This document shows, piece after piece, positions 81 through 17,454 of a stretch of 64,000 nt of DNA. Below the pieces are notes generated by a model. That model was not told the DNA's origin and searched no databases. It was given only the letters and a program-made list of their open reading frames with translations. Numbering within the stretch: position 1 is the first letter of the stretch; each line of letters starts with the position of its first letter. The stretch comes from Ginsengibacter sp. (lineage in GTDB: Bacteria > Bacteroidota > Bacteroidia > Chitinophagales > Chitinophagaceae), in contig JBQCHE010000020.1 in NCBI GenBank assembly GCA_051954975.1, forward strand, positions 64,841 through 128,840, written 5' to 3'. The position numbers and the translations under genes are program-made.

Positions 81-86
81 CTGATG

Positions 87-629: not shown

Positions 630-1931
630 TTATTCCACACTTAAACTGAGTGAAGATTTCCTTCGTTCCTTAATTTCTAAAGGATTAAACGGTCTGCTTT
701 TCATGGCGATTATCGTGAGTATTGCAGAAAGGAACAGGGACCCAGCCATAAATATATATGATGCAGCAAATCCTCCTGTTGCTCCTTCAAGGTAGCCAAC
801 AATGTAAGCCCCAACGAATGAACCCAATGCACCCAAACTATTTATCAAAGCTATAGCACCTCCTGCAACATTTTTAGGAAGCATCTCAGTAATTATCGCA
901 AAGAAAGGACCATAAGGAGCGTACATTGCGCCTCCGGCAATAATCAATAAAGTAAAAGACAGCCAGAAATTACTGGTGCCTACCAAATAGGAGCCATAGA
1001 AGGCAAGTGCTCCTATCAAAAGAAACGGCCAGATAAATTCTTTTCTGTTTAGTGTTTTATCTGAGAAATGCGAAGCCGCTAACATCGCTATAATCGCCAA
1101 AATATACGGCACGGACGAGAGCCACCCGGTGGTTACTATATCCATATTGGGCGCTTCGTTGATGATGGATGGCAACCACATTACAAATCCATATACCCCA
1201 ATACTCCACAGTGCATACTGGAGACAGAGTAAAACCACTACCCTTGATTTAAACGCTTCGGCATAGTTCTTCACCGGCTTGATGCTTTGTTGTTCTAATG
1301 CCAATTGCTCTTCCACATCATCTCTCTGCGATTCTGTCAACCATTTGGCATCTTTTACCTTATCGTTTACCAAATACCACCAAAAAAACGCCCAAATGAT
1401 CGCTGGCGCTCCTTCTATGATAAACATCCAGCGCCAACCCATAGAGCCTACCAGGTGTCCTGATACAATGGACATCCACAAAATGGTAACAGGATTGCCC
1501 AAAATCAAAAAAGTATTCGCCCTGGAACGTTCGGCTTTGGTGAACCACCTGCTGAGAAATATCAGCATGGAAGGCATAACTGCACTTTCTACCACCCCCA
1601 GCAAAAACCTGATTACGATCAATAAAGTAATGTCGCTCACCATACCTGTGGCCATGGCGAGTGCTCCCCATAGTATCAATGACCAGAATATTAATTTCTT
1701 GGCACTTTTATTAGCTGCATAGAGGGCTCCCGGTATCTGGAAGAAAAAATAGCCAAGAAAAAACAATGAACCGAGCAACGACGACATTGCCGCTGTTATA
1801 TTCAGATCGTGTGCCATGCCTCCGGCAAGTGCAAATCCAAAGTTGGCCCGGTCGAGATAGGCCAAACTGTAAGTAATAAATACGACTGGGATCAAACGAT
1901 ACCAACGTTTTCTGGACAATGGTCTTAACAT
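630..1931 (-). CDS. MFS transporter, anion:cation symporter (ACS) type, likely acidic-sugar/aldonate permease
   Basis: 433-aa ORF with about 12 hydrophobic helices. The N-terminal YLDRANFGFA motif and overall pattern are typical of hexuronate/galactonate/phthalate-type MFS. It is the last gene of the co-directional locus. Confidence 0.8.
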   Translation of the reverse strand: MLRPLSRKRWYRLIPVVFITYSLAYLDRANFGFALAGGMAHDLNITAAMSSLLGSLFFLGYFFFQIPGALYAANKSAKKLIFWSLILWGALAMATGMVSDITLLIVIRFLLGVVESAVMPSMLIFLSRWFTKAERSRANTFLILGNPVTILWMSIVSGHLVGSMGWRWMFIIEGAPAIIWAFFWWYLVNDKVKDAKWLTESQRDDVEEQLALEQQSIKPVKNYAEAFKSRVVVLLCLQYALWSIGVYGFVMWLPSIINEAPNMDIVTTGWLSSVPYILAIIAMLAASHFSDKTLNRKEFIWPFLLIGALAFYGSYLVGTSNFWLSFTLLIIAGGAMYAPYGPFFAIITEMLPKNVAGGAIALINSLGALGSFVGAYIVGYLEGATGGFAASYIFMAGSLFLSAILTIIAMKSRPFNPLEIKERRKSSLSLSVE

Positions 1932-2001
1932 AATCTATTGGCTTTTTTGTTCTCCTTTTTTAAATAAAAAAAAATCGGTTATTATTTATCCTGTTATACT
2001 A

Positions 2002-2967
2002 TTACCAGGTTCGTTTGCTCATTATCTCATCAAGCTGTGCTTTGCTCATCTTCCCTAATTCCGGATGCTGTTGCAACCATTTGAGAAAACTTTGTTTTAT
2101 GTCTTCTGTCCATTGATTATCTATCTGACCGGTCGAGTACCGGTTGGACCGCACCATCTCAAATCCAAATTTATCTTTGAGCACCACAAATTCTGAAGTA
2201 CTGATTACCAGTTCTGCCAGATGAGCAGGAATAAACAGCACACCTTCTTTTTCCGCTATCACAAGGTCTCCAGGCAACACAATGGCGCCTCCAATTCTAA
2301 TGGGCGTATTGAGTCCCATGAGTACCATTCCTTCCAAAAAGGAGGGATGAAAATCGCGTACAAAAGCATTGAATCCTTTTATTTCTGAAAGCCCTTGCAA
2401 ATCCCGCGCAGCCCCATTGAAAACCACGCCGTTTCCTGATTTGCTGTATATCGAATTTCCAAGTGTGCTTCCCATCAGGGTGCCGGCGTCTATTTTTCCA
2501 AATCCGTCTGCCACATATACATCGCCTTTTGACAGCACATCTATTGGCCATGAATTGGTATTGCCTGATCTCCCCTGCTTTAACCCGCGATCTTTAATGC
2601 TCTTTTCTACATCGGGGCGGCTTGGCATAAACGCTGCTGTAAGGGCGCGCCCAATCACCGGAATACTATCGTTTATCATTTTCCATCCGGACTCAAACTG
2701 ATGGGTATAGCCTAAATTTTTTAATACCGTCCATGCATCGTCTATGCCGATAGCTCTGGCTCGCATCAATAAATCATCAGCAATTTTTGGCCGCCCGTCT
2801 GTGAATCTTTCTCCCTTCCATTCCGAGGTCAAAAAAACAAGCTCACTTCTTGCAATAGTTTGGGACAACAGGAAATGACCATTGAAAAAAAATGTGAATA
2901 AAACTGCAAGTATGAAACATTTCTTCTTCATTTTTTTAAATGTATATTTTAAAAAAAACGCCAGCAT
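2002..2967 (-). CDS. Secreted RraA-fold protein (RraA / HMG-CHA aldolase family), paralog 1
   Basis: Core GDVYVADGFG...GTLMGSTLGNSIYSKSGNGVVFNGAARDL matches the RraA/aldolase fold signature. Hydrophobic signal KKCFILAVLFTFFFNGHFLLSQ; the likely true start is the internal Met at 2931. About 320 aa versus about 160 aa for canonical RraA. Confidence 0.7.
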   Translation of the reverse strand: MLAFFLKYTFKKMKKKCFILAVLFTFFFNGHFLLSQTIARSELVFLTSEWKGERFTDGRPKIADDLLMRARAIGIDDAWTVLKNLGYTHQFESGWKMINDSIPVIGRALTAAFMPSRPDVEKSIKDRGLKQGRSGNTNSWPIDVLSKGDVYVADGFGKIDAGTLMGSTLGNSIYSKSGNGVVFNGAARDLQGLSEIKGFNAFVRDFHPSFLEGMVLMGLNTPIRIGGAIVLPGDLVIAEKEGVLFIPAHLAELVISTSEFVVLKDKFGFEMVRSNRYSTGQIDNQWTEDIKQSFLKWLQQHPELGKMSKAQLDEIMSKRTW

Positions 2968-2979
2968 TAGTCTATATAT

Positions 2980-3636
2980 TTAAGGAACACGAACTTTTAT
3001 TACTATTTTTTTGACACTATCATATCCTTCCATTTTAAAAGCCGGACGATGAATTTCCTGTGGCGAAAAAATAAAAAAAGTACCAGGGCCGGCATCATAA
3101 TATTTGCCGTTTGAAACTGAAAATGCTTCATTGTCATCAGGTGTATAAGAAGTAATTACCTTAACACCAGAATCGGTTATCGGCACAATTCCCATTTCTG
3201 TTTTACCCTGGATAATATATTGAAGATCATTAAAATTCCTGTGGGCTTCCCAATGAGTGCTATCCTTTTCTTTCGGAACGCCAACTGAAACAGTAGCAAT
3301 TACGTTATTGCTGTCTATAACATACCTGCCGGGCTCTAAAGTGTTCAAATCCTTACTTTTTAAAAACCCAAAAGCTTCATTCCACCATTTTGGATTTTTC
3401 TGATATTGTTTTAAAAATTCAGATTTGTTGATGCTTTCATGAGGAGTTATATTGAGCCCTTTATACCAATCCTCGTTTGTGTACCAATCAGCACTATTCT
3501 CATCCTCTTTAACTTTTGGATTATTGGAACAAGCTGTAAAAATCAATGAAATAATTACCAATGAAATAATTACCAACACGGTTGTCATCCTAAATTTTTT
3601 CATAAATAATCTTTTTTTTATCCTCAATAGAGTCAA
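2980..3636 (-). CDS. YhcH/YjgK/YiaL (DUF386) family lipoprotein
   Basis: The cupin-like core ...HWEAHRNFNDLQYIIQGKTEMGI... is typical of DUF386. Lipoprotein-type signal ending IFTAC; the likely start is an internal Met (3603 or 3588). Confidence 0.7.
   Translation of the reverse strand: MTLLRIKKRLFMKKFRMTTVLVIISLVIISLIFTACSNNPKVKEDENSADWYTNEDWYKGLNITPHESINKSEFLKQYQKNPKWWNEAFGFLKSKDLNTLEPGRYVIDSNNVIATVSVGVPKEKDSTHWEAHRNFNDLQYIIQGKTEMGIVPITDSGVKVITSYTPDDNEAFSVSNGKYYDAGPGTFFIFSPQEIHRPAFKMEGYDSVKKIVIKVRVP
3544..3573. repeat. Perfect 15-bp tandem duplication (caatgaaataattac x2) inside the YhcH-family signal-peptide coding region
   Basis: Read directly: 3544-3558 is identical to 3559-3573. On the minus strand it encodes VIISL-VIISL in the hydrophobic core of the signal peptide. 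Confidence 0.95.
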
Positions 3637-3766
3637 ATCCTAACCTTTCACGTTGACGGTTCCAGGCTACTTTATTTAAAAGAAGTTTCTATGCCCCGCA
3701 ACGGTTAGAAATAAATCAATTAAGATAGAATTTTAATAAAAACTTTTCGCCTTCCATATCGGGGGT

Positions 3767-3907
3767 TTATTTTTCATTATCCTCTTTAGCACTTTTAAAT
3801 TCTTTTATTCCTTTTCCGATTCCTTGCATTAAATGAGGAATTTTTCTTCCACCAAAAAATAAGAGGATTACAAGAAATATTAAAATCCATTCTGCCCCGC
3901 CAGGCAT
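3767..3907 (-). CDS. tatA: Twin-arginine translocase subunit TatA/E (small ORF absent from the >=60 aa track)
   Basis: Manual translation of the minus strand gives MPGGAEWILIFLVILLFFGGRKIPHLMQGIGKGIKEFKSAKEDNEK. It has one TM helix, the FGG-(R/K)K-(I/L)P hinge and an amphipathic helix, which are the TatA hallmarks. An alternative upstream ATG at 3946 would give 59 aa. Confidence 0.8.
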   Translation of the reverse strand: MPGGAEWILIFLVILLFFGGRKIPHLMQGIGKGIKEFKSAKEDNEK

Positions 3908-4000
3908 TGTAAACAAAAAGTTGTTTTTTAATAAAATATTATTCATTTGAAATGTATTAAAATAAACCTAATCTTCAGTAAACAAACAAATAAGTAGCTT

Positions 4001-5557
4001 TTATTTTGCATAGGGTTGAGGCCTTGTAATTTCGGTACCTCCTGTTGTCCTTCCACTCCATAAAAAATCACTTGAATTTGAATTATTCCATTCCGGGGTT
4101 GGAGCAAAATAACCAGGATGCCTGGGATCAAGATGCTTCTTAACCACCTCATCATTTAATTCAACGCCTAAGCCCGGAGCACTGAGTGGAACATGGGCAA
4201 ACCCCTTATCGAATATTTTAAATCCACCTTTTGTTTTTACCAGGTCTTCCCACCAGGGATTGTCTAAGGAGCCATTATTGGGCATTTCCAGCGAAAGCAT
4301 GTTGTTAGTTGCAGCAGCACAATGTACGTTTGCCATAAAAGAGACTGGTGAGCCGGCAAAATGCATGATCATCGGAATACCTTTTGATTCGGCATAATCA
4401 CCTATAATTTTTGTTTCTAAAATACCACCAGAAGAGGCAAGATCCGGTTGCACGATATCTACGGCATTGTTATCTATCAGTTTAAAAAATTTTTCTTTAA
4501 GATAAATGTCCTCTCCGGTTAACGTCGGTGTTTCGATTGCGTCTGTAACTGCTTTCCACTGATCAATATAATCCATAGGGAAAAAATCTTCCAGCCATGC
4601 AAGGCGATAAGGATCCAGCGCTTTTCCTACCCGGATTGCATTATTTACATCATAGTTACCAAAGCCATCTGAACCAAGAGGAATATCCCAACCAATGACA
4701 CTTCGAACCATATCAACATATTTGGCAAGTTCATCCAGTCCCTTGTCCGTAATCTGCATTTGATAAAAAGGTTGTTTAATTCTTAAATCACCAGTTAAAA
4801 TGGGAGAATAACTGTTTCTGTATTCAGGAGTGTACCAAAACTTGTCATTTACTGTTGTTCCGGGAATATCGGCGATCCAATCAATTGAAGGATACATTTT
4901 AAACCAGGTAATACCCAGTTTTTCCTTGCGGAAATTTATTTCTTCTTTAAACTTCTCTACATCCATTAGTCTGCCATTATGCCTTGGAACATAAGCGTAC
5001 ATTCTTATCTTATCTCTGTATCTTCCACCTAATAATTGCCATACGGGCACTCCATAAGCCTTCCCGGTTAAATCCCAAAGCGCCATTTCTACTCCTGAAA
5101 CTCCTCCTCCCTGCCTTGATTGTCCGCCAAATTGTTTTATCAGCCTAAACAACATTTCGACGTTGCAGGGATTCTGCCCCAATAAACGGCTTTTCAATAT
5201 CAAAGCGTACCTCCAATCTGCACCGTCTCTTACTTCTCCCAAACCATAAATACCCTGGTTCGTATCAATTCGAATAATAGGTCTTTGATTGGCGACAACA
5301 CAATACCTCATATCTGTAATTTTTAAGTCGGAAGGACTTGAAAACCGTTTCACTTTTGATGTAGTTTGTGCGATGGTATCTCCTATTGGCAGGTTCATTA
5401 AACCTACGAGGGATAAGCCACCTAGCGTCGCTTTTTTCAGAAAGCTACGCCGGTCGTCTGAGGTACCAGGATTATTTTCTTCAATTTTCATTTCTTCCAG
5501 ATATAATCTCTCTTCTTCTTTGCTTTTTTCAATAATTTGATCAATAATTCTTTTCAT
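4001..5557 (-). CDS. Enolase-superfamily enzyme (mandelate racemase/muconate lactonizing family, acid-sugar dehydratase-like) with twin-arginine signal
   Basis: VEMALWDLTGKAYGVPVWQLLGG is the MR/MLE N-domain motif. Candidate metal ligands lie in LGSDGFG, AWLEDFFP and LTGEDIY. The Tat motif DDRRSFLKKATLGGLSLVGL is near consensus; the probable start is the internal Met at 5491. Confidence 0.8.
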   Translation of the reverse strand: MKRIIDQIIEKSKEEERLYLEEMKIEENNPGTSDDRRSFLKKATLGGLSLVGLMNLPIGDTIAQTTSKVKRFSSPSDLKITDMRYCVVANQRPIIRIDTNQGIYGLGEVRDGADWRYALILKSRLLGQNPCNVEMLFRLIKQFGGQSRQGGGVSGVEMALWDLTGKAYGVPVWQLLGGRYRDKIRMYAYVPRHNGRLMDVEKFKEEINFRKEKLGITWFKMYPSIDWIADIPGTTVNDKFWYTPEYRNSYSPILTGDLRIKQPFYQMQITDKGLDELAKYVDMVRSVIGWDIPLGSDGFGNYDVNNAIRVGKALDPYRLAWLEDFFPMDYIDQWKAVTDAIETPTLTGEDIYLKEKFFKLIDNNAVDIVQPDLASSGGILETKIIGDYAESKGIPMIMHFAGSPVSFMANVHCAAATNNMLSLEMPNNGSLDNPWWEDLVKTKGGFKIFDKGFAHVPLSAPGLGVELNDEVVKKHLDPRHPGYFAPTPEWNNSNSSDFLWSGRTTGGTEITRPQPYAK

Positions 5558-5608
5558 AATAATTAATTGTTAGTTTAAAAAATTTGTATCAGTGTTATTT
5601 TATTTAGT

Positions 5609-6571
5609 TTATTTACTCTCCTTATTTAGATATTCTTCAACTTCTTTTGAAGTAATAGCTGTTTTCTTTGAATATTTCAAAAACCATTTTCGAAATTCAT
5701 TTTTCATATTTTCTGACCAGTCACCATGTACTTCACCCGAAGGATATTTTGCTAATTGCAACATATATCTTTCAAATTCATCTTTCAGGGCGATCATTTC
5801 TGAACTGGTAACCAAAGGTTCTACTAAATAAGGCGGTATAAAAGCAACGCCGTAATCATTGGCAAATACCACATCTCCCGGAAACACCGTTGCTTCCCCT
5901 ATCCTTATCGGTGCATTTATCGACACAGGTGTCATATCCTGTATGTATGAGGGATCATTGCCTTTAATCCATGCGTTAAATCCCTTGGTGTCCTTAAGTT
6001 CCTGCATATCTCTTATGGATCCAAAAAATACAACTCCCTGTCCGGTTTTTCCATAAATGGCATTTCCGAGGCTTGAACCTATCAAGGTGCCATTCTTTAT
6101 TTTCCCAAATCCATCAGCAACATAAATATCATTAGTAGTGAGAACATCAATTGGCCAGGTATTAATTCCTCCATGTTGAGATTTGCCTTCTCTTTTACCT
6201 GCATTACGAATAAGGGAATCGAGATCCGGCCTCGACGGCATAAACTGAGTGGTAACTGCACGCCCAACCATGATTTCACCCGGCTTTAAAATTTGCCAGT
6301 TTTTTTCTATTTGGTTGTGAAACCCTCTTCTGTATAAATAGCCCCAAATTTGTTCCAGGGTGCAATTTTTTAGCCTTTGCAAAAGATCGTCAGGAACCTT
6401 CGGTCTTCCGTCTGCAAATCTTTCGCCTTTCCATGTTGAGGTTATTGCAATTATATTTTCAGACGGCGTACTGACGTGTTGAGCATATATACTAAACGGG
6501 AAGACAAAGAAAAATATAATTACAGCAATCAATTTCATCATAAAATTTGCATTTGTTTTTTTAATATTCAA
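5609..6571 (-). CDS. Secreted RraA-fold protein, paralog 2
   Basis: NDIYVADGFGKIKNGTLIGSSLGNAIYGKTGQGVVFFGSIRDM. It is collinear with the 2002-2967 product along its whole length, roughly half the residues identical by eye. Signal peptide LIAVIIFFFVFPFSIYAQ. Confidence 0.7.
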   Translation of the reverse strand: MNIKKTNANFMMKLIAVIIFFFVFPFSIYAQHVSTPSENIIAITSTWKGERFADGRPKVPDDLLQRLKNCTLEQIWGYLYRRGFHNQIEKNWQILKPGEIMVGRAVTTQFMPSRPDLDSLIRNAGKREGKSQHGGINTWPIDVLTTNDIYVADGFGKIKNGTLIGSSLGNAIYGKTGQGVVFFGSIRDMQELKDTKGFNAWIKGNDPSYIQDMTPVSINAPIRIGEATVFPGDVVFANDYGVAFIPPYLVEPLVTSSEMIALKDEFERYMLQLAKYPSGEVHGDWSENMKNEFRKWFLKYSKKTAITSKEVEEYLNKESK

Positions 6572-6596
6572 CCAGGCAGTTATAATCAGATCATAA

Positions 6597-7628
6597 CTAT
6601 TTTGGTACTGCGTTTTTATTTATATATTGCTGCAACTTATTTGCCTCAAGGTCATTCGATGCTAAATCTTTAATATAGTGAAAACGTTCGGCCCATTCGA
6701 GACCATATTGTTTTCCTAATTCTCTATTTGAAATTTGAGTAAAATTCAAGCGACGGGCATCAATATCAAAAACGAAATGTTTTACATAATTAAAATCTGC
6801 TTTGCTATCGTCATCGCCCAAGATTGTCAATTTTTTACCCTCCTTTGCCAATTTCTCTTTTAGTTTTCTTCCGGCCCCTTGTCCGGCTGGACCTTTTGTA
6901 GTATTCAGCATATTTACTTCAACCTTTTTATCAATATAATTGCTGATATCTACTATCCGGTTAACTCGCTGAGGATCCCTGGAGAAATAATATCTTTCTT
7001 TGGGGCTATGAGGTTTCAAACCTGCATCCAAATGTTCAGGATAGTCAGTGGCCATCCCTGCCATCCATCTCGCAGCTTCTACCGCATGTGCTGTTGCAAT
7101 GTGATCGGGATTCTCTTCATAATGTTCCCACGGGTCCCAGGTGATAACTGTATCAACTTTTAATAACCTGAATAAAAAAATCAGCCGGCCCTTAAGATCC
7201 TGGATTTGTATGCTATCCATCCGGTGATGAGGATACATGAAATCATAACCTTTTCCCATGCCGTAATACCTGGCAATTTTTGCGTTATCTTGTTTGTTAC
7301 CCTCCACGTCACCACTGGAATCATCAGAAGTTCGAAGCAGGTAACCAGTGTACCCTTCATCCAAAAGTTTCGCAACAGTGCCACCGGCAAACAATGGAAT
7401 ATCGTCTGAATGCGCCTGAATTGCCAGTAACACCTTGCCTTTATGTGGCTTTCCTGTCACATGTCGCTCTATAACAATTTCTTCCGGATCGCCTACAATG
7501 CCGTTTGGATCTTTTTTTACTAACTTTTCCTGGGTGCTTTTATTAACATCCAGTCCGAGAGTGAATAATGAGCTCCCGACTAGAGCACTGGATAATAAAC
7601 CCTTATGCAAAAAATCTTTCCTTTTCAT
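6597..7628 (-). CDS. PIG-L/LmbE family deacetylase, exported
   Basis: The motif LLAIQAHSDDIPLFAGG(T) corresponds to the AHPDD(E) zinc-deacetylase signature. N-terminal signal-like region KDFLHKGLLSSALVGSSLFTLG. Confidence 0.75.
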   Translation of the reverse strand: MKRKDFLHKGLLSSALVGSSLFTLGLDVNKSTQEKLVKKDPNGIVGDPEEIVIERHVTGKPHKGKVLLAIQAHSDDIPLFAGGTVAKLLDEGYTGYLLRTSDDSSGDVEGNKQDNAKIARYYGMGKGYDFMYPHHRMDSIQIQDLKGRLIFLFRLLKVDTVITWDPWEHYEENPDHIATAHAVEAARWMAGMATDYPEHLDAGLKPHSPKERYYFSRDPQRVNRIVDISNYIDKKVEVNMLNTTKGPAGQGAGRKLKEKLAKEGKKLTILGDDDSKADFNYVKHFVFDIDARRLNFTQISNRELGKQYGLEWAERFHYIKDLASNDLEANKLQQYINKNAVPK

Positions 7629-7667
7629 ATTTCTAAAGTTTTAAATGATTGTTGATTGTTTTCAGTA

Positions 7668-9206: not shown

Positions 9207-9228
9207 TTTGATATTTTTTAAAGCGGTT

Positions 9229-12200: not shown

Positions 12201-12600
12201 CCAATGGTTCTCCTTTTGAATTAGTAACGATACCGGTCACAATATTTAAAGGAACTGTTTGAATTGAAGAAACTGTTTGGTTTTCTTTTCTCTGTCCATA
12301 TTGGACCGGCTTTTCTCTTATTACTACGGTATTATCAAAAATTCTGTAAGTCAAAGGTTGGTTTGTAAAGCAGAGTTTCAAAACTTCATCTACAGGAGCT
12401 TGTGTTACCTGTAACGTAACAGGAGAGGCCTTTTCTAATATGTTCGTTTCATAAAGAAATGTGAAGCCCGTTTGATATTCGATTTTCTTAAGTACTTTCT
12501 CAAGTCTCGTTTTATTTTCATTAAGCGTAACTTTTTGAGCAACTACTTCTGCACTTACCTTGATGCAGGCAAAAAGCATTAAGCATGTTGTCAGTTTCAT
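9229..12600 (-). CDS. SusC-like TonB-dependent receptor with N-terminal STN signalling domain
   Basis: STN-like LEKVLKKIEYQTGFTFLYETNILEKASPVTLQV..., then a CarboxypepD_reg-like IVTGIVTNSKGEPLVGVSV, a plug (VVVTALGIKRE), a long beta-barrel and a C-terminal ...YGINLNARF. The likely start is the Met at 12600 (signal MKLTTCLMLFACIKVSA); the longest ORF reaches 12696. Confidence 0.9.
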   Translation of the reverse strand: MKLTTCLMLFACIKVSAEVVAQKVTLNENKTRLEKVLKKIEYQTGFTFLYETNILEKASPVTLQVTQAPVDEVLKLCFTNQPLTYRIFDNTVVIREKPVQYGQRKENQTVSSIQTVPLNIVTGIVTNSKGEPLVGVSVALQGTNIGTSTDSKGRYSINVPANGLLIFSYVGFITQEISLNNRTELNIVLKEEATKLNEVVVTALGIKREARSLGYSTGVVNTDQITTDRATNVGNSLVGKVAGVNVSAPTSGPGGSAKIRIRGQSSFGGDNSPLIIVNGIPINNTSISAGYKNSDNPTGGSSDGGDGLQSINPDDIESMTVLKGAAAAALYGYRAKDGAIIITTKSGSKHKGIGIEFNTNNQLSTALDFTDFQYEYGQGENGVRPTTVAEAQSSGIWSFGEKFDNKLTPQSDGTLKPYSPHKNRIREFYRPGFNSTNSVALSGGYDRGNFRISFSNTDAIGIVPNSDFHKKILNLAINYNLTPKLSTQVNANYSNEYNHNPPQIGIEGFSVNTTIYTMANSIDVNSLKNYKDSNGNEMPLARFTGRNNPYWVAYEHFENIRRDRIFGNASIRYQLSDWLYMQGRIGQDYYTRPYEFNRPTGSRNLSTAVSGFNGYYYQDVTTFRERNIDFLVGANHKFNNFLMDITVGGNQMQQTFDRLSTSVTNFYVRGLYTIGNGQIKNPDYDFSKKRVNSLYGSAEFSFKDFLFLNLTARNDWFSTLNPKSNSYLYPSVNGSFVFTDIFSTKPSWLNYGKLRAAYAEVGGDTDPYTNALYYSINPNPLNTIALGTINSSVSPNSNLRPLKVRETEVGMDLRMFNNRVNLNFSLYRKNTVDEILDVNISEASGYTQTKVNIGKLKNEGVELLLTVFPIKGKINWESGFNAAYNRSEVLALANGQNSFDVGVGQYFGIISHEVGLPLASVRAFDYKRDAKGNILTAGGKPLLGELKTYGSAIPKWTGGWTNSINYKAFRLFTQIDFKAGAVVLSNSNFNFLRHGLSKASLEGREEGVVFKGYNADGTSNSVAVPAEEFYASLRNLGEPFVYNASFVRLRTVSLGYDLTSFVKKTPVKALVVSAFVNNPLMIKKYLDNLDPESQISVSDNFQGLDTHSLPTTRTYGINLNARF

Positions 12601-12743
12601 GATTAATAAAATTTTGATTAAACAGAGACTCCTCAGGCAAGAGGTTTTGTAGTTAGGAAGCAATTCCATAGCTTTGATTCGTTTTTGGTGAAACAATAAT
12701 GATACTAACGGTTTTATTTTTGAATAGCCTAAACATTTTACGG

Positions 12744-12763
12744 GCCCCGACCCTCATCGGGGC
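12744..12763. other. GC-rich stem-loop between the anti-sigma and SusC-like genes
   Basis: gccccga-ccctca-tcggggc is a perfect 7-bp GC-rich stem in otherwise AT-rich intergenic DNA. There is no clean U-run on the minus strand. Confidence 0.4.
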
Positions 12764-12814
12764 TCGTTTCTTGCTATCCATGCATTAACTTTTTTTCTAG
12801 CTCATAACTTCTAT

Positions 12815-14017
12815 CTAATTTTCTGATATTATAATTTTTTTATCAACAATTTGCATACTTACGCCTGTATATTGCAGCATTGTTATTAACTCGCTTAGCT
12901 TTAGGTTTCTGCTGATTTTGCCTGTGAACCGGCGCTTCGGAATCGAACCTTTATATTCTACCTGCACATCATACCATCTTGAAAGCTGCCGCATAATATT
13001 CTGAACGTCGGCATTATTAAATTCAAAATTGTTATTCTTCCACGCAATTGCTTCATCGGTGTTAGCGTGCTGGTTAATTTTTAAAGTCCCTGATTTACTT
13101 AGGTTTGCTTGTTCACCGGGAGATAATGTGACAGTTTGGTTAACTGCATTTTCCGATGGTGCACTTTTTATTTTTACCGAGCCCTCTAATAATGTAGTTG
13201 CCACAACGCTTTCATCCGCATAGGCATTTACGTTAAAATGTGTTCCCAGTACTTCTATAGTCATATCATTGACCTTTACCTGAAAAGGCATTGATGAATT
13301 TTTCGCAATTTCAAAATATCCCTCACCGGTTAAAGTGACCTCCCTGTGTTTGCCCCGGAAAGATGCCGGATATTTTAATGAGGATTCGGCATTGAGCCAT
13401 ACTCTTGAACCGTCAGATAACACAATCTCATACTTTCCCCCACGAGGTGTGGATATTGTATTTAATCCCCATCCCTCTGCTCTTTTCTGATCTAAATCAT
13501 ACAATATCTGGCCATCTTCTCCTTTTATAATTTTGATATTTCCTTGTCTTGTAAGTATTCCATTTTTTGCTGTGTTCAAATCAATCATAGATCCATCAGC
13601 GAGCGTAAGCGTAGCCTTATTAGAACCGGGAAGCGCATCACTGGAAGAAACACCTATCGTTTGCTTTGGATTTTTCACAACCACAGTATCAATATTTCTA
13701 TTAGACATCCTGGTAAAAACATAAAACACGCTAGAAAAAACAAATGCAATCAAAATTGCCGCAGCCGATACTTTTACATAAACTTTATCCACGAACCTGA
13801 TTTTATTACCACTTCGTTTATTTTCTAAAATATTCCTCCAGATATCGTCCCGAATGTCATGCTTTAAATGTTCCTTTTGTTCTGAGGTAAGCAGTTCCAT
13901 TACATCTGGATTATTTTCAAAAAGGTTGTAATAGCTTATTATTAATTGATCTTCCTCACCGGTAGTTTTTCCTTGTTGATATTTGTTCAATAACTTTAAA
14001 AAATAACCTTTGTCCAT
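12815..14017 (-). CDS. FecR-family transmembrane anti-sigma factor
   Basis: 400 aa with a cytoplasmic N-terminus, a single TM (AAILIAFVFSSVFYVF) and a periplasmic FecR-like domain (...LTGEGYFEIAK...VLGTHFNVNAY...). It lies between an ECF sigma gene and an STN-bearing SusC. Confidence 0.85.
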   Translation of the reverse strand: MDKGYFLKLLNKYQQGKTTGEEDQLIISYYNLFENNPDVMELLTSEQKEHLKHDIRDDIWRNILENKRSGNKIRFVDKVYVKVSAAAILIAFVFSSVFYVFTRMSNRNIDTVVVKNPKQTIGVSSSDALPGSNKATLTLADGSMIDLNTAKNGILTRQGNIKIIKGEDGQILYDLDQKRAEGWGLNTISTPRGGKYEIVLSDGSRVWLNAESSLKYPASFRGKHREVTLTGEGYFEIAKNSSMPFQVKVNDMTIEVLGTHFNVNAYADESVVATTLLEGSVKIKSAPSENAVNQTVTLSPGEQANLSKSGTLKINQHANTDEAIAWKNNNFEFNNADVQNIMRQLSRWYDVQVEYKGSIPKRRFTGKISRNLKLSELITMLQYTGVSMQIVDKKIIISEN

Positions 14018-14338
14018 GTAATTGAGGTTTCCTTATGTTACCTGCTTATATATATGACCCGGATCATTAAAAATGTCCCATTCGTTTAGAAATTTTTTTA
14101 TTAAACAAAAGAATAAGTGAAACCGAAAGCTATGAATCTTCTTATCCCAACTAGTTTCATCTTAAAAAAGCCTGATTAAAAAAAAACAACTACATCAAGG
14201 TATTCTTGTTGTGCCTCCGCCCTTGGCTCAAGGGATTTTACTTAAGAATTGTTTCGATGTTTACGAAGGTTTTAGAAAAAGCAGGAGCAGTAAATAACTG
14301 TGAGAAAAAAGCTTAAATGATAGCGACAACCTGGTCAG

Positions 14339-14926
14339 TTAGGAATTTGCAACGATTATCACTAAATAAAATAAACGCAATAAAGAAACTTTCAGAGTTT
14401 CTATTGCTTTACCCAGTTGGTTTTGGACAGTCTTTATGGTGATTCCCAATTGTTTTGCAATTTCTTTGGTACGCAGATCCTCATGGAAACGTAATTTAAA
14501 AATTTCCTGCCTTTTTGGAGGTAATGACTGCACTATTGCATCATATGACTGGAAAAAATCTTTCCAGAGCAAATTGGAATCGGCTCCGCCGGTTTCAACT
14601 GAAACATTTTCAAGAAGATCGAAAAAAGGGTGGGTAACTTTCTGTTTTGTTACCAACTTGATCACTTTGTTCCGGACAGCTACATGTAAATAAGCAGCCA
14701 GATTGTCAATGTGGGTTGTTTCCCTGTTAAACCAGATATGAGAGAATATATCCTGCACAATATCTTTTGCATCATCATGATTTCCCAAACGCTTATATGC
14801 ATCAGCGTAGGCTTTCTGCCAGTATTTTTCGAACAGCGTATCGAAGGCACGGGTATTCCCTTCCTGCAGTAGCCGAAGTAGTAAAATATCAGAACTTTGA
14901 CTTAATTCATTTTCGTGCATAAGCAA
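14339..14926 (-). CDS. ECF-type RNA polymerase sigma-70 family factor
   Basis: 195 aa with region 2 (AKDIVQDIFSHIW) and a region 4 HTH (TKEIAKQLGITIKTVQNQLGKA). Confidence 0.85.
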   Translation of the reverse strand: MLMHENELSQSSDILLLRLLQEGNTRAFDTLFEKYWQKAYADAYKRLGNHDDAKDIVQDIFSHIWFNRETTHIDNLAAYLHVAVRNKVIKLVTKQKVTHPFFDLLENVSVETGGADSNLLWKDFFQSYDAIVQSLPPKRQEIFKLRFHEDLRTKEIAKQLGITIKTVQNQLGKAIETLKVSLLRLFYLVIIVANS

Positions 14927-15400
14927 AAGGATGTTAAACGAATGTAGAAAAATATTTCAATGAAATTAAATAAAAACATTAAAACATTTTACATCCTTGC
15001 AAAGGGGAAATAATAATTGCCAAAACATAACAGGAAATGGTATTTCGCAATGTCCTTTAAACTCTTATTTTTTGCTCGGCATTTAATGTAAGGATAGATA
15101 AAAGAAATAGGGTTACCAATGCGTTGTTCCAACTGTTCCTAAAATGTCATTGGTAGATTAACTCAATCTAAATAGACTAGATAAACATCTTCCTTATTTT
15201 AGCCGCTACTTTTCTATTCCATCCAATAGCTTAATCGTGATTCTTACGTTGATATCGGTGCTCTCTGGAAATGTATAATTGAAAAACCAAGGGATGTTTT
15301 AATTGTGGTTTAAAGGCATGTAGCGAAGAATGTATTTTACAAAATAAAAATCTTCAATATAAGTTTGTTTGCTGTTCTCTAATTTCCGTTTTCGTGAATT

Positions 15401-17332
15401 TTACCAAACTTTAATCTTTTGTTTCCCCGAATCCTTGATTTCAAAAGGTCCTGGGGAGGGGTTTTCAATGTTACGCTTTTTACCGAGGTAATCTATACCA
15501 ATGCGGAGCGCAGAGCCATCCACATTTTCAAAGGGAAGGCCAGGAACAATCGCTTTAGTTAGCCTTTCAGTGGTTACCAGCTTGCGTTTCTGATTCAACC
15601 AATTTTTTTCAAAAGAAATTTGGAGGTACAAGTCTTTACCCTGCTGCACCAAATTGACGACAGCATCAAAATTATTATCCACCAAAGGATTCGTTTCGGT
15701 AGCTACATGTTCTTTATATTCTTTCATTTGCTTCTCTGCGTTTTTGTTCAGCTCACCAAATTTGTACTGGCTATTGTTTTTCACGGCTCCAACGGCTCCA
15801 TTAGTATAGACATTTCCTTTAAAAATAACGGGCAGCAGCGCATTGTTATACTGGCTGGCATCTGCTCCATTGACAAACAGGTTGTTTATAAATTGAACAT
15901 CTCCACTCGGATTATCATGAAGTGCCACTACATAAGTAGAATGCGGCTTCATATATGGCGTTAGTCTTGCGTCGTAATGAATAACGTCTATTTTGCCCGC
16001 AAATAAATTGTGCACGAAAGCAGCGCCGCTGGAGTTCATTAAAAGATTGTTTTTCGATAATAAAATATTGTTGCATACCAACATCGGCCCATGATCCACT
16101 TCCAAAAAGATGTCTGTGGAATTGTCATTCATTAAATTACCTTTTATCTGTGCACCCTGCGCCATCCAGTCGAGCCATATTCCGGCAACGCCGCCTACAC
16201 GATAAATATGATTGTGCTCAATTTGTACATCTACTGCACCATGAAATTTAATACCTGCCATTTCCGCTCCTGTGAATAAGCGATGCACATAAATATCGTG
16301 TATGGTGTTTCCTTCTATTGTACTGAAAGAACAACCCATACTGCCTACAATGCCGGTTTGTTCGCAATAAGCAATTGTGTTGTTGCGAACAATATGCCCA
16401 CCAATGGTACCTTTGTTCCATCCAAAAGCTAACGCTCTTTTGATGGTGCCTACATATCCTTCGGCTGATTCAGCGCTCGTGTTATCGAATTCATCGCCAT
16501 ATTTACCTAATGCGATACCGGAACATTTGGAATATTCAATGGTATTATTTTCGATAATCCAGCCGCGACTCCAATGGGTGCCAATCAATCCCATTTGTTC
16601 TGCCGTTGGCGGCGCCCAGTTGGTAGCGGCTTGCTCCATGGTAAAGCCACGAACGGTAATGAAATTTATGAATGGCTTGTCGGGATAAAAAACGGTTGGA
16701 CGAACATTAATTTCTACCAGTTCTTTATTAGGATCAGCATCCTTAAATTGTGCCCACATGGTTGTAGTAGCCGAATCCACTTCTGCCCACCAAAGCGGAT
16801 TTTTTTCATCCCCATTAGCCATCACCTCTTGTTTTTTTGCTGCTTCCATCAGCCAATGGCCGTTTAGATAAACGGCTCCCCGGTGGTATTTCCGGCCTTC
16901 CGGCGTAGGCGTGAACCAATCACCCTGAATTAATTCTTTATACGGATTAAAATCCTTAAAAAATGTATTGGGAATTTTTACCGCCCATGTGTCGTTGTCT
17001 AATTTTTTCCAGCCTTTTATAATTTCTGAACCTTTTATTACAACCTTTTCGCGAGCGGCCGCTTCATAAACAATCCGTTCTGAATTGGAATTTCCTCCGC
17101 GTGGTGGCGTGATTTGCTCCCGGTAGGTTCCTGCATGAACAAGCACAGTATCGCCAGGCATAGCCAAATTCGCAGCCGCTGAAATAGTTTTTAGCGGTTT
17201 GGATAAAGAGCCATTATTGTGGTCATCACCATTTACCGAAACGTGGTATTTCGTTTGGGGTAAAGTAGATTTTTGTTGTGCTGAAACGGCCACTGTACTT
17301 AAAACAAACGCGCTGATTAGAAATTTTTTCAT
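15401..17332 (-). CDS. Secreted right-handed parallel beta-helix repeat protein (possible polysaccharide lyase/hydrolase)
   Basis: Signal MKKFLISAFVLSTVAVSAQQ (start at 17332; the longest ORF starts at 17434). N-terminal YHVSVNGDDHNNGSLSKPLKTISAAANLAMPGDTVLVHAGTY, then repeated NNTI/GNTI/HNHI turns typical of beta-helix CAZyme folds. Confidence 0.65.
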   Translation of the reverse strand: MKKFLISAFVLSTVAVSAQQKSTLPQTKYHVSVNGDDHNNGSLSKPLKTISAAANLAMPGDTVLVHAGTYREQITPPRGGNSNSERIVYEAAAREKVVIKGSEIIKGWKKLDNDTWAVKIPNTFFKDFNPYKELIQGDWFTPTPEGRKYHRGAVYLNGHWLMEAAKKQEVMANGDEKNPLWWAEVDSATTTMWAQFKDADPNKELVEINVRPTVFYPDKPFINFITVRGFTMEQAATNWAPPTAEQMGLIGTHWSRGWIIENNTIEYSKCSGIALGKYGDEFDNTSAESAEGYVGTIKRALAFGWNKGTIGGHIVRNNTIAYCEQTGIVGSMGCSFSTIEGNTIHDIYVHRLFTGAEMAGIKFHGAVDVQIEHNHIYRVGGVAGIWLDWMAQGAQIKGNLMNDNSTDIFLEVDHGPMLVCNNILLSKNNLLMNSSGAAFVHNLFAGKIDVIHYDARLTPYMKPHSTYVVALHDNPSGDVQFINNLFVNGADASQYNNALLPVIFKGNVYTNGAVGAVKNNSQYKFGELNKNAEKQMKEYKEHVATETNPLVDNNFDAVVNLVQQGKDLYLQISFEKNWLNQKRKLVTTERLTKAIVPGLPFENVDGSALRIGIDYLGKKRNIENPSPGPFEIKDSGKQKIKVW

Positions 17333-17401
17333 GGTTTCTGACTTGGATATTATCAATAATTCAGTTTTTTGTAACCTCGATGAATTTATTTCTTTTTCCC
17401 C

Positions 17402-17454
17402 AAAACAAAAAAGCTGTTTCGAAAGCGAAAACAAAAATCACTTTTGAAACAGCT
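17402..17454 (-). terminator. Rho-independent terminator of htpG
   Basis: Stem agctgtttcgaaag/cttttgaaacagct (one mismatch). On the minus strand it is followed by TTTTTTGTTTTG. Confidence 0.65.

Follow-up and report, generated by a model that had tools for sequence, protein, structure and literature searches.

An exported acid-sugar enzyme set downstream of a signal-gated SusCD module in Ginsengibacter: a putative periplasmic route to a keto-deoxy acid

Introduction

Which nutrient is taken up by a SusCD system whose downstream genes encode exported acid-sugar enzymes, and on which side of the inner membrane is it processed? The question is raised by a locus in a 64,000-nucleotide stretch of DNA from Ginsengibacter sp. 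(contig JBQCHE010000020.1, here called the window), which belongs to a nutrient-uptake system of soil Bacteroidota. We compared this locus with 160 related loci (numbered with the prefix L), 80 of them anchored on the enolase-superfamily gene and 80 on SusD. On balance, we favour an uptake system with trans-envelope signalling in which exported enzymes requiring only metal ions would carry out the periplasmic processing of a sugar acid. A preceding sequence-only reading had suggested much of this; it was partly supported, since the SusCD gating, the export and the anion permease held, while the upstream depolymerase was not supported, a hint at sialic acid proved weak and the position of tatA turned out to be recent. 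In the literature we found no prior description of this locus type, nor the characterised orthologous PUL which that reading had named as evidence against itself, and the core enzyme pair is uncharacterised.

Results and Discussion

A SusCD module under predicted trans-envelope control. Open reading frames and domain profiles confirmed the gene order and the shared minus-strand orientation originally described for positions 630-17332 (Table 1). The domain content of the sigma factor, FecR and the STN-bearing SusC bears out the gating of the module proposed earlier; the FecR translation contains a hydrophobic segment near residue 85, and the sigma factor of a syntenic locus in a sister taxon (L096) is 81% identical to that of the window. 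The spacing 3' of SusC, previously put at 12-130 bp, was measured as -14 (or 22), 39, 25, 51, 54, 130, 12 and 70 nt, in agreement with that range; the likely starts of susC and susD are at 12669 (1146 aa in the L001 gene call) and 9206, respectively. No convincing intrinsic terminator was found on the minus strand between the genes of the locus, and this absence, together with the gene spacing, points to a putative operon. The hairpin between fecR and susC is not followed by a T-run on the coding strand; its role might be to set the regulator genes apart from a sigma-dependent susC unit.

Table 1. Features of the locus and of its flanks, with positions in the window.
Feature	Positions	Strand	Domains and signals
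kdgK relic, inverted C-terminal fragment	344-448	plus	match to L096 KdgK
kdgK relic, N-terminal fragment with frameshift	476-587	minus	PDB 2AFB match
MFS permease (ACS-type)	630-1931	minus	MFS_1; TIGR00893
RraA-like-1 (exported RraA-fold, paralog 1)	2002-2967	minus	S...G type; Sec-type signal
YhcH/DUF386 lipoprotein	2980-3636	minus	DUF386; TIGR00022; lipobox FTAC
TatA	3767-3946	minus	TatA_B_E; TIGR01411
Enolase-superfamily enzyme (MR_MLE)	4001-5557	minus	MR_MLE_N + MR_MLE_C; Tat motif RRSFLKK
RraA-like-2 (exported RraA-fold, paralog 2)	5609-6571	minus	Pfam RraA-like; S-X20-R-D-X2-E type
PIG-L (CE14) de-N-acetylase	6597-7628	minus	Pfam PIG-L
SusD-like lipoprotein	7668-9242	minus	SusD-like_2, 271 bits; lipobox TSGC
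SusC-like TonB-dependent transporter	9229-12696	minus	STN + CarbopepD_reg_2 + Plug
GC-rich hairpin, fecR-susC gap	12740-12767	none	11 pairs, 8 G-C
FecR-type anti-sigma factor	12815-14017	minus	FecR + FecR_C
ECF-type sigma-70 factor	14339-14926	minus	Sigma70_r2 + Sigma70_r4_2
GH120 beta-helix glycosidase	15401-17332	minus	Glyco_hydro_120_ins + Beta_helix; PDB 3VST

Predicted export signals of the enzymes downstream of SusD. Export signals were called by explicit sequence rules and by their conservation across related loci rather than with SignalP or TatP. On this basis the enzymes encoded downstream of SusD carry predicted N-terminal signals, as the sequence-only reading had maintained, and these are kept across the families. 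The RR motif of the enolase-superfamily protein begins at residue 36; R37 and F39 are invariant in the family and R36 is nearly so, the strict motif is present in 109/120 enolases of related loci, and solved cytoplasmic homologs align to the window protein only from residue ~76 onward. Both RraA-fold proteins have strongly hydrophobic Sec-type N-termini, a property found by the same rules in 85 of 88 RraA-like proteins, and in the YhcH protein a hydrophobic segment precedes the lipobox. PIG-L has a 60-aa N-terminal extension that starts with MKRKDFLHKG and continues into an h-region rich in Gly, Ser and Ala. Its conserved RK[DE]FL motif, kept in 7/8 paralogs or orthologs, resembles a Tat motif with RK replacing RR; PIG-L is probably exported, by an uncertain route. 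The partner enzymes in L008 and L009 likewise carry Tat or Sec signals. The metal-only requirement of the locus enzymes is compatible with the periplasm.

The exported enolase-superfamily enzyme is tightly linked to an RraA-fold protein. The best NCBIfam match of the enolase-superfamily protein is galactonate dehydratase (170 bits, cut-off 311), with lower scores for talarate/galactarate dehydratase (86), muconate cycloisomerase (51) and glucarate dehydratase (18), and the protein lies below every equivalog cut-off. D297, E323, E349, D372, H399 and K220 are invariant in its family, and the spacing of its metal and acid/base residues matches that of mandelate racemase. It is thus probably an acid-sugar dehydratase of the mandelate racemase subgroup, predicted to be Tat-exported; we know of no enolase-superfamily dehydratase for a 2-amino-2-deoxy-aldonate.

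Within 10 kb of the enolase gene, the 80 loci anchored on it contain an RraA-like gene in 61 cases, SusD in 41 and an SBF-family transporter in 32. The Tat-exported enolase and the RraA-fold protein form a widespread, tightly linked gene pair: the two genes are immediately adjacent and co-oriented in 73/119 cases across Bacteroidota, and homologous SusCD genes and an anion permease (SBF or MFS) are frequent neighbours of the pair. SusD homologs from other genera (57-68% identity) lie upstream of enolase, RraA or PIG-L genes, and the enolase follows in 7/7 close relatives of SusD for which sufficient sequence is available downstream. Recurrent partners include aldose epimerase, PQQ sugar dehydrogenase, UxuA and KdgK/Eda. 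The window-type enolase (D-G-x-G-N) is always accompanied by deacylases among its loci, namely PIG-L in L012, L013 and L021, and CN_hydrolase, Amidohydro_2 and AXE1-like proteins in L008 and L009.

The two RraA-fold paralogs differ in the pair of motif positions that covary in the family (D...G / S...E). RraA-like-2, whose top Foldseek matches are 5X15, 3K4I and 3NOJ, keeps the R-D dyad together with a compensating Glu. RraA-like-1 has neither acidic motif residue and may therefore be inactive or do something else. The trio of YhcH, RraA-fold and MFS genes is found again in L028, L029 and L066. Both RraA-fold paralogs are 26-27% identical to FlDet, an RraA-family enzyme of a Flavobacterium that acts on 2-keto-3-deoxy-glucarate (PMC8563752).

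Deacetylase, candidate ring-opener and permease. The best PDB matches of PIG-L, a member of CAZy family CE14, are diacetylchitobiose deacetylases, to which its AHSDD and PDH motifs align (HxDD and PDH kept). The YhcH lipoprotein matches DUF386 with 107 bits and TIGR00022 above its cut-off, and we regard it as a candidate anomerase that would open the ring of a cyclic 3-deoxy-2-ulosonic acid; a YhcH protein has been described to provide open-chain ulosonate to an aldolase (PMC8141875). The earlier hint at sialic acid proved weak, as YhcH reaches only 61 of the 160 bits required by the N-acetylneuraminate anomerase equivalog. The permease scores 17 bits against 604 for a sialate symporter, and a profile search found neither NanA nor a sialidase in the locus. 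The permease matches the D-galactonate-transporter subfamily TIGR00893 (269 bits, below cut-off), its orthologs in related loci are 75-88% identical, and this ACS-type anion permease probably imports the product formed in the periplasm.

The tatA gene (TIGR01411, 54.5 bits, cut-off 53.9), formerly listed as an operon member, is absent from 80 related loci and lies elsewhere in the sister locus, where the MFS gene is ~2.4 kb upstream of it. We conclude that tatA was recently transposed to its place in the operon, which is not conserved.

A kdgK relic points to a cytoplasmic end of the pathway. Just downstream of the MFS gene we found a truncated kdgK relic that had been overlooked. Its N-terminal fragment reads MAKKVVTLGEIMLRLSTPD, then two stop symbols, and KRFVQADSFDVTYGGGNE; it matches the KDG kinase 2AFB with E = 2.8e-11 and is 95-100% identical to the N-terminus of KdgK from the sister locus. 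The C-terminal fragment is 77% identical to residues 311-341 of the same protein, and its blastn match is inverted. In the sister locus an intact KDG-kinase-like gene comes right after the MFS gene; the order is MFS-KdgK-DUF386(cytoplasmic)-YaaH. GPR1/FUN34/YaaH is an acetate permease family, and this gene can be paired with the proposed deacetylation by PIG-L. In L040 (Rubrolithibacter), kdgK-like and eda-like genes are directly followed by ECF-FecR-SusCD-RraA-ENOL-SBF. Such adjacency was observed in only a few loci (L040, L078, L095/L096 and the window relic). Placed in this way, the kinase genes suggest import of the keto-deoxy acid without prior cleavage, and these comparative data fit the earlier proposal of periplasmic de-N-acetylation and dehydration before import of an anion.

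The GH120 gene probably lies outside the conserved system. The operon was said to contain no GH family, and the beta-helix protein upstream of the sigma gene was offered as its candidate depolymerase. The former statement is wrong for this upstream gene: it encodes a GH120 enzyme with a full-length match to XylC (E = 4e-136), both catalytic residues (D382 and E405 of XylC align to WLDW and LEVDHG) and a Sec-type N-terminus, MKKFLISAFVLSTVAVSAQQ. With this gene and the CE14 protein, the locus is not free of CAZymes. The signal peptide of the GH120, its intact residues and its co-directional position directly upstream would suit a conventional PUL for xylan or xylo-oligosaccharides, with the secreted GH120 as its key enzyme and the other genes incidental or handling side groups. 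However, none of the 160 related loci contains GH120, nor does the syntenic sister locus, which places it probably outside the conserved system and speaks against its role as depolymerase; moreover, a gap of 474 nt sets it apart from the sigma gene, and the locus encodes neither a xylanase nor an isomerase or kinase for xylose. We find the xylan reading hardly credible.

Proposed pathway and alternative readings. In the pathway that we favour, an oligomer or monomer with an N-acetylated aldonic-type acid sugar would enter through SusCD and lose its N-acetyl group to PIG-L. The enolase-superfamily enzyme would then deprotonate the carbon alpha to the carboxylate and eliminate the beta substituent, giving a 2-keto-3-deoxy-hexonate (KDG-like). 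YhcH may hold this mostly cyclic ulosonic acid open for the RraA-fold enzyme. Working through the C3 enolate, this enzyme could cleave the 2-oxo acid in a retro-aldol reaction, carry out a beta-elimination or decarboxylate it. The anionic keto-deoxy acid would be imported by the MFS permease, and KdgK and Eda would complete the pathway in the cytoplasm. Against this stand, besides the enolase scores below every cut-off, the RK in the PIG-L signal, the missing acidic residues of RraA-like-1 and the small number of loci with kdgK or eda nearby, two further points: the conserved gene set holds no enzyme to free an acid-sugar monomer from an oligosaccharide, and import of intact KDG would leave two periplasmic RraA-fold proteins without an explained role.

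Alternatively, the RraA-fold proteins may be class II aldolases in a fully periplasmic, non-phosphorylative route, in which they and the YhcH opener would turn the 2-keto-3-deoxy acid made by the dehydratase into pyruvate and an aldehyde, with MFS (SBF in relatives) importing pyruvate or another small 2-oxo acid. The fold is nearest to HMG/CHA pyruvate aldolase and yeast YER010Cp, with the essential Arg-Asp dyad retained. YhcH is known to supply a pyruvate aldolase, and in the window its gene lies 12 nt upstream of RraA-like-1; the SBF family, frequent in the related loci, includes pyruvate and 2-oxo-acid carriers. We nevertheless consider this route unlikely, given the KDG-kinase genes beside the permease (sister taxon) and the SusCD genes (L040), the missing acidic residues of RraA-like-1 and the lack of any aldehyde-handling enzyme in the locus. 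Of the C-C cleavage that had been thought possible in the periplasm, what stands is one of several chemistries open to the RraA fold; the kinase genes argue against it as the main flux. Another reading is non-hydrolytic trimming, in which the enolase would dehydrate the aldonic end of an imported C1-oxidised oligosaccharide; by way of the C3 enolate, the RraA-fold enzyme would then split off the 4-O-linked glycan, so that the pair would replace a glycoside hydrolase. SusCD imports oligomers, yet no GH family recurs in related loci; the two genes are tightly coupled, FlDet illustrates that RraA-fold enzymes can eliminate a C4 oxygen substituent from 2-keto-3-deoxy acids, and some loci include PQQ-type and Tat-GFO sugar oxidoreductases among the partners. 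This proposal draws entirely on chemical plausibility, enolase-superfamily dehydratases are known on monomeric acids, and the trimming could be left to glycoside hydrolases encoded at other sites of the genome; we regard it as improbable.

In an aldarate or uronate route the enolase would make a keto-deoxy-aldarate, and an RraA-fold enzyme would convert it to alpha-ketoglutaric semialdehyde for import, as the resemblance to FlDet, a KDGR dehydratase/decarboxylase, might suggest. Glucarate and galactarate dehydratases are enolase-superfamily members with weak matches here, and ACS-type MFS proteins include glucarate transporters. Still, those matches score below galactonate dehydratase, FlDet is cytoplasmic and only distantly related, no KGSA dehydrogenase occurs in the locus or among recurrent partners, and the linked cytoplasmic enzymes are KdgK and Eda, all of which makes this reading decidedly improbable. 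Very unlikely, finally, is a non-carbohydrate substrate such as lignin-derived ring-cleavage acids (the RraA-fold protein as LigK-like CHA aldolase, the enolase as cycloisomerase) or N-acyl amino acids. A CHA aldolase is among the RraA-fold enzymes, Amidohydro_2 (LigI/LigJ family) and CN_hydrolase genes adjoin the window-type enolase in L008/L009, and JGI labels the enolase 'L-Ala-DL-Glu epimerase-like'; against this, the enolase scores far better with acid-sugar dehydratases than with muconate cycloisomerase and has the His-Asp dyad typical of the mandelate racemase subgroup, the partner genes encode sugar enzymes, and PIG-L belongs to a carbohydrate esterase family.

Comparison with known systems. 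For the favoured pathway of periplasmic processing followed by import, we tentatively suggest a 2-acetamido-2-deoxy-aldonate as substrate, for example the GlcNAc1A ends of oxidised chitin. A known route from GlcNAc1A to KDG uses a deacetylase and a deaminase, with KdgK acting next (PMC9537276). If GlcNAc1A were indeed the substrate, the locus would be the periplasmic equivalent of the Ong pathway, though not orthologous to it.

The gene run and its uptake and regulatory parts

ORF listing and Pfam/NCBIfam scans bore out the gene run described in the sequence-only reading, including the gaps of 12-130 nt 3' of SusC. HtpG (17477-19330) forms its upstream border. The terminator scan found no convincing coding-strand terminator between the locus genes, and promoter-like sites numbered 64 against 55.5 expected from shuffling, a count based on the sigma-70 consensus, which is unsuited to Bacteroidota.

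Genes and gene remnants of the locus and their positions in the window
Feature	Position	Strand	Remarks
Beta-helix protein, secreted	15401-17332	-	GH120
ECF sigma	14339-14926	-	
FecR anti-sigma	12815-14017	-	
SusC	9229-12696	-	STN, CarbopepD_reg and Plug domains
SusD	7668-9242	-	SusD-like_2, 271 bits
PIG-L	6597-7628	-	PF02585
RraA-like-2	5609-6571	-	
MR/MLE enolase-superfamily protein	4001-5557	-	
TatA	3767-3946	-	
YhcH/DUF386	2980-3636	-	PF04074
RraA-like-1	2002-2967	-	
MFS	630-1931	-	D-galactonate-transporter (ACS) type, score below cut-off
kdgK relic, N-terminal fragment with frameshift	476-587	-	PDB 2AFB match, E = 2.8e-11
kdgK relic, inverted C-terminal fragment	344-448	+	

The susC and susD genes adjoin or overlap and both carry their diagnostic domains, giving the adjacent gene pair expected of a PUL. 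The ECF sigma (regions 2 and 4), FecR and the STN domain of SusC all scored above Pfam cut-offs and together make up a trans-envelope signalling system. Sigma/anti-sigma-gated SusCD uptake and its regulation are textbook parts. PULs are commonly interpreted from the glycoside hydrolases and lyases that they encode. It had been stated that the operon holds no GH family; however, the upstream beta-helix gene encodes a full-length GH120 (XylC, PDB 3VST, E = 4e-136, residues 28-643), with D382 and E405, the catalytic residues of XylC, aligned and conserved. The other CAZyme, inside the locus, is PIG-L, of CAZy family CE14. The GH120 is not kept in related loci, and no GH recurs there.

Two hairpins were observed in this region. 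One (12740-12767), GC-rich in a genome of 38% GC, has 11 pairs, of which 8 are G-C, and occupies the gap from the fecR stop codon to the start of susC; it lacks a T-run on the coding strand and could serve as an attenuator or mark a processing site. At the window edge, a tRNA-Cys (GCA; 10-81, plus strand) is followed by a strong 12-pair hairpin (86-113) with a T-run; this arrangement converges on the locus end and may terminate transcription from either side.

The cargo enzymes carry conserved export signals

Export was called by explicit rules combined with conservation across related loci. By these rules the enolase carries a Tat signal (DDRRSFLKKATLGGLSLVGL), with RRSFLKK at residue 36, in line with the twin-arginine pattern S/T-R-R-x-F-L-K and a moderately hydrophobic h-region behind it. 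In an alignment of 20 homologs, R37 and F39 do not vary and R36 occurs in at least 90% of the sequences, and a strict RR motif was found in 109 of the 120 enolases from 80 related genomic loci. Alignment of its catalytic domain with cytoplasmic structures begins only at residue ~76. A strongly hydrophobic N-terminus is shared by 85 of the 88 RraA-likes in the 80 loci, and YhcH has the lipobox FTAC. PIG-L and its paralogs have in common [KR]RK[ED]FL[KQ]KG and, behind it, a Gly/Ser/Ala-rich segment; this is Tat-like, but because RK stands in place of RR it is uncertain by which route they are exported. Elsewhere, the window-type enolase has partners (Amidohydro_2, CN_hydrolase, GFO, AXE1-like) that also bear Tat or Sec signals. 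The families of the exported locus enzymes use a metal ion only and none requires NAD, ATP or PLP; judged by family knowledge, they should therefore be compatible with the periplasm.

Conservation within the family extends to residues 1-35 of the enolase (window 5452-5557), ahead of the RR motif, with the consensus MKxxLxxIxxxNKxxE (M1, K2 and E16 in at least 90% of sequences in alignment A1). A stretch of ~35 residues is an unusually long Tat n-region, and it might be a binding site for chaperones or proofreading factors. In two related loci, paired Amidohydro_2 genes overlap by 11-17 nt (L009 8209-9952, L008 11566-13324); the first of each pair bears a Tat RR signal, the second is signal-free, and they could be co-exported as hitchhiker heterodimers.

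The enolase resembles acid-sugar dehydratases

In the enolase, the three carboxylate metal ligands on strands 3-5 (D297, E323, E349), the His-Asp dyad on strands 7 and 6 (H399, D372) and the strand-2 Lys (K220) are invariant. Their spacing (26/26/23/27) is that of mandelate racemase, and the protein belongs to the mandelate racemase subgroup of the enolase superfamily. The best NCBIfam match was galactonate dehydratase (170 bits, cut-off 311 bits), with all others lower; none of the galactonate, mannonate, gluconate, rhamnonate or talarate dehydratase equivalogs was reached at NCBIfam cut-offs. Since the best score stays below its cut-off, we regard the protein as acid-sugar-dehydratase-like and outside the characterised equivalogs. 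After the first metal ligand it reads D-G-x-G-N, a rare subtype with deacylases always alongside: PIG-L in L012, L013 (six paralogs) and L021, and CN_hydrolase, Amidohydro_2 and AXE1-like in L008 and L009. The common subtype, D-H-x-G-H, is paired with RraA-like genes. The L013 paralogs, in a Bacteroidales MAG, are six tandem PIG-L genes (11611-18361) behind SusCD and an enolase.

RraA-fold proteins, PIG-L and YhcH

The AlphaFold model of RraA-like-2 has the RraA fold (pLDDT 76; top matches RraAS2, 5X15; 3K4I; and HMG/CHA aldolase, 3NOJ), with low confidence in active-site loops 133-141 and 156-168, so that it supports the fold only. RraA-like-1 and RraA-like-2 are 42% identical, and each retains the Arg-Asp dyad, essential to HMG/CHA aldolase. 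Scores against the CHA aldolase equivalog fell below the cut-offs. Class II pyruvate aldolases/decarboxylases of the HMG/CHA type carry the motif D-X20-R-D or G-X20-R-D-X2-E/D, as reportedly described by Mazurkewich et al. 2014 (cited in PMC5065237). RraA-like-2 (S-X20-R-D-X2-E) resembles the second motif, and RraA-like-1 (S-X20-R-D-X2-G) is without either acidic residue. Across the family, the acidic residues 21 before the Arg and 3 after the Asp covary (D...G 50, S...E 21, S...G 4). The S...G type, 4 of 90 sequences, includes RraA-like-1 and its ortholog (L029 13344-14273). Judging from these residues, RraA-like-1 could be an inactive protein or the subunit of a partner, or its chemistry may differ.

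Another Foldseek match with the RraA fold, PDB 5IR2, is titled 'novel cellulases from microbes associated with the gut ecosystem'. A literature search for 5IR2 returned nothing relevant; cellulase activity, if real, would bear on glycan cleavage by RraA-fold proteins.

PIG-L scored 47 bits against PF02585 (cut-off 28 bits), and its AHSDD and NPDH motifs align to diacetylchitobiose deacetylase 3WL4; diacetylchitobiose deacetylases are its best solved relatives, and the Zn-site motifs (H-x-D-D ... P-D-H) are present. It did not reach the BshB1 and Mca equivalogs. The YhcH protein belongs to DUF386 (PF04074, 107 bits; TIGR00022, 75 bits against a cut-off of 45.5). Its gene lies 12 nt upstream of RraA-like-1, and the YhcH-RraA-MFS trio is also found in related loci L028, L029 and L066.

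The enolase/RraA module is widespread in Bacteroidota

The enolase and RraA-like families each comprise more than 8000 clusters at 90% identity. An enolase-anchored scan with one genome per species gave at least 589 relatives, of which 80 loci were kept.

Gene families within 10 kb of the enolase in the related loci
Family	Loci
RraA-like	61/80
Homologous SusD (up to 68% identity)	41/80
SusC	35/80
SBF-family symporter	32/80
Secreted DUF4440	14/80
PQQ-cytochrome c dehydrogenase	9/80
Tat-signal UxuA	8/80
MFS	6/80
PIG-L	3/80
YhcH	3/80
GH120	0/80
TatA	0/80

No GH family recurred in at least 4 of the 80 loci. The RraA-like gene was directly next to the enolase and co-oriented in 73 of 119 cases, and the typical architecture is ECF-FecR-SusC-SusD-RraA-ENOL-SBF(-DUF4440), ENOL being the enolase. 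When the search was anchored on SusD, an enolase followed in 7 of 7 SusD relatives that were at least 55% identical and had enough downstream sequence, and at ~45% identity other enolase-superfamily genes often came next. SusCD may therefore be linked with sugar-acid enzymes outside this subfamily as well. Such a different enolase-superfamily gene, ~25% identical to the window enzyme, is next in L125, L127, L129, L132, L134, L136, L141, L144, L167 and L169, sometimes with MFS, PQQ dehydrogenase or UxuA. In Adhaeribacter aquaticus (L007, L024, L027) there is an array of 6-7 Tat-enolases and 3 RraA-likes.

We found no description of this gene combination in the literature, and no literature link of RraA-family proteins with SusC, SusD or PULs, or of mandelate-racemase-family or PIG-L genes with SusD. 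A search on exported enolase-superfamily enzymes with Tat gave nothing relevant. PMC5507952 was matched by its reference list only. The exported enolase/RraA module is abundant and uncharacterised, and the locus is one of a large, phylum-wide class of SusCD loci carrying an exported dehydratase-like and an RraA-fold enzyme.

A kdgK relic and a syntenic sister locus suggest a KDG-like product

Downstream of the locus, a decayed KDG-kinase gene begins ~40 nt past the MFS stop. The syntenic sister-taxon locus (L095/L096), whose proteins are 69-93% identical to those of the window, keeps ECF-FecR-SusC-SusD-PIG-L-RraA2-ENOL-YhcH-RraA1-MFS. In L096 the MFS is followed by an intact 341-aa KdgK-like protein (18309-19334), then, at 19407-20600, a cytoplasmic 150-aa DUF386 protein with no signal, besides the periplasmic lipoprotein form, and a GPR1/FUN34/YaaH-family permease, and then TatA. 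Upstream, a LacI regulator stands where the window has GH120. Nucleotide synteny shows that tatA came to lie between ENOL and YhcH in the window lineage. This lineage also lost most of kdgK, whose remaining 3' end is inverted, and all of the cytoplasmic DUF386 and YaaH genes. The tatA gene had been listed as part of the operon; with this relocation, and with 0 of 80 loci having it even at relaxed thresholds, we rejected a dedicated conserved tatA.

In the Rubrolithibacter locus (L040), kdgK-like and eda-like genes lie directly before ECF-FecR-SusCD-RraA-ENOL-SBF on the same strand. Because only L040 and L078 among the 80 enolase-anchored loci show KdgK/Eda linkage, this link rests on few loci and the sister locus. 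Together, the relic and the sister locus give a checkable prediction, namely that the imported product is a KDG-like acid (a 2-keto-3-deoxy-hexonate).

Elsewhere in the window, 42638-52596 (plus strand) is a separate conventional acidic-glycan locus with heparinase II/III-like, GH88-like and DUF2264 genes, a mannitol-dehydrogenase-family reductase and an altronate/galactarate dehydratase (UxaA type), a gene set that points to the classical cytoplasmic uronate pathway in the same organism. At 58108-62497 (plus strand), a second STN-bearing TonB-dependent receptor (59723-62497) is preceded by two unannotated ORFs of ~240-250 aa, and this may be another sigma/anti-sigma-gated uptake system.

A proposed periplasmic pathway and its alternatives

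The gene content and order, the conserved export signals, the linkage of enolase, RraA-like, SusCD and permease genes and the kdgK adjacency are observed. With them, the core idea of the sequence-only reading, that acid sugars are processed in the periplasm before an anion is imported, holds up as a sequence-based proposal. On the best-supported reading, for which we infer catalytic activities, substrate and co-transcription, SusCD under sigma/anti-sigma control would feed a pathway in the periplasm. PIG-L would de-N-acetylate the substrate, and the enolase-type enzyme would take the alpha proton and beta-eliminate, giving a 2-keto-3-deoxy-hexonate. YhcH would then open the ring for the RraA-fold enzyme, which would use C3-enolate chemistry; the anion would be imported by MFS here and by SBF in relatives and pass to cytoplasmic KdgK and Eda. 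Deacetylase and eliminating enzyme, combined with KdgK and an acetate-type permease, would, by analogy, mirror the logic of the oxidised-chitin (Ong) pathway for GlcNAc1A, with unrelated folds and in the periplasm. GlcNAc1A as the specific substrate is a guess that we consider unlikely to be right. If sugar acids are processed in the periplasm, part of the monosaccharide-level catabolism of Bacteroidota sits outside the cytoplasm, two abundant, generically annotated families gain a function, and soil Bacteroidota have a testable route to oxidised or acidic amino-sugar material, e.g., LPMO products.

Periplasmic aldol cleavage to pyruvate would suit the Arg-Asp dyad and the YhcH neighbour, as YhcH supplies a pyruvate aldolase with 3-deoxy-2-ulosonic acids, which are mostly cyclic, in their open form (PMC8141875); the kdgK adjacency points to an acid that is imported and phosphorylated. 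An aldarate route would have the RraA-likes act as FlDet does, a Flavobacterium RraA-family KDGR (2-keto-3-deoxy-glucarate) dehydratase/decarboxylase of the same fold; orthology to FlDet (LC519890) was rejected, at 26-27% identity (E = 9e-13 and 3e-10). Substrates other than carbohydrates would accommodate the Amidohydro_2 and CN_hydrolase partners of the enolase subtype; the acid-sugar-dehydratase-like enolase and PIG-L, a member of a carbohydrate esterase family, speak against them. The hint at sialic acid did not survive: YhcH scored 61 bits against a cut-off of 160 for the Neu5Ac anomerase equivalog NF040884, the MFS 17 against 604 for the sialate symporter, and the nan genes are missing, with no NanA or GH33 found in Pfam/NCBIfam scans of the locus products; on these scores and absences that reading was rejected.

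The GH120 had been put forward as the candidate depolymerase, and one rival reading takes the locus as a xylan PUL centred on it; GH120 was found in 0 of 160 related loci and the synteny with the sister locus is also against it, and on both grounds we rejected it as a member of the system. A different glycan reading takes the enolase/RraA pair as a two-step non-hydrolytic device stripping aldonic-acid ends from SusCD-imported oligosaccharides: the terminal acid would be dehydrated and the 4-O-linked glycan then eliminated through the C3 enolate. If true, the pair would do the work of a glycoside hydrolase, and soil Bacteroidota would have a dedicated way to use chitin, cellulose or xylan damaged by LPMOs or oxidases. 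The tight coupling of enolase and RraA-like genes would suit it; we judge it very improbable. A weaker form would be a full equivalent, in the periplasm, of the Ong pathway for GlcNAc1A with unrelated enzyme folds.

Comparison with known systems

With ECF/anti-sigma PULs that have an STN-bearing SusC, the locus shares sigma, FecR, STN-SusC and SusD in the usual order and co-directional exported enzymes after SusCD. Its conserved cargo sets it apart: in place of glycoside hydrolases or lyases, the exported proteins are an enolase-superfamily enzyme, RraA-fold proteins, a PIG-L deacetylase and a DUF386 protein.

The window enolase has the fold, three metal ligands, His-Asp dyad and strand-2 Lys of cytoplasmic enolase-superfamily dehydratases (DgoD, ManD and others). 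Unlike these, it is extended at the N-terminus by ~75 aa that include the conserved Tat signal, has ~48 aa inserted after strand 2 and before strand 3, and ends in a C-terminal tail; it is also without the His two residues past the first metal ligand. The RraA-likes have the fold and catalytic Arg-Asp dyad in common with HMG/CHA aldolase, FlDet and RraAS2, and the long forms have the C-terminal helical extension of RraAS2 and FlDet. However, they are only 20-27% identical to these proteins and differ from them in a signal peptide (FlDet has none), a conserved ~35-aa N-terminal mature segment and linkage to an enolase-superfamily gene and SusCD; RraA-like-1 also lacks the acidic motif residues. 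Window YhcH shares with the YhcH/NanQ anomerase (PMC8141875) DUF386 membership, the aligned metal-site region and a candidate 2-oxo-acid enzyme as neighbour, but it is a lipoprotein, whereas YhcH/NanQ is cytoplasmic, and it falls short of the anomerase equivalog.

In the Ong pathway of Pseudoalteromonas prydzensis, TonB-dependent uptake is followed by de-N-acetylation of an acid sugar, C2/C3 elimination to KDG and KdgK, with acetate as by-product (PMC9537276). A deacetylase, an alpha-proton-abstracting enzyme, a permease and kdgK (a relic here, intact in L096) are the logic common to both. The OngA (GH20), OngB, OngC, OngD (RidA) and OngIT (SSS) families were not found among the locus products, so the locus is not an Ong cluster. 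OngB is a D-aminoacylase and OngC is PLP-dependent, whereas the window has the non-homologous PIG-L and enolase-superfamily enzyme; GH20 and RidA are missing from the window locus; transport is by SSS and a plain TonB-dependent receptor in Ong, and by MFS and SusCD in the window; and the Ong steps are cytoplasmic, whereas those of the window are predicted to be periplasmic. Only KdgK is shared, and the likeness is one of pathway logic alone.
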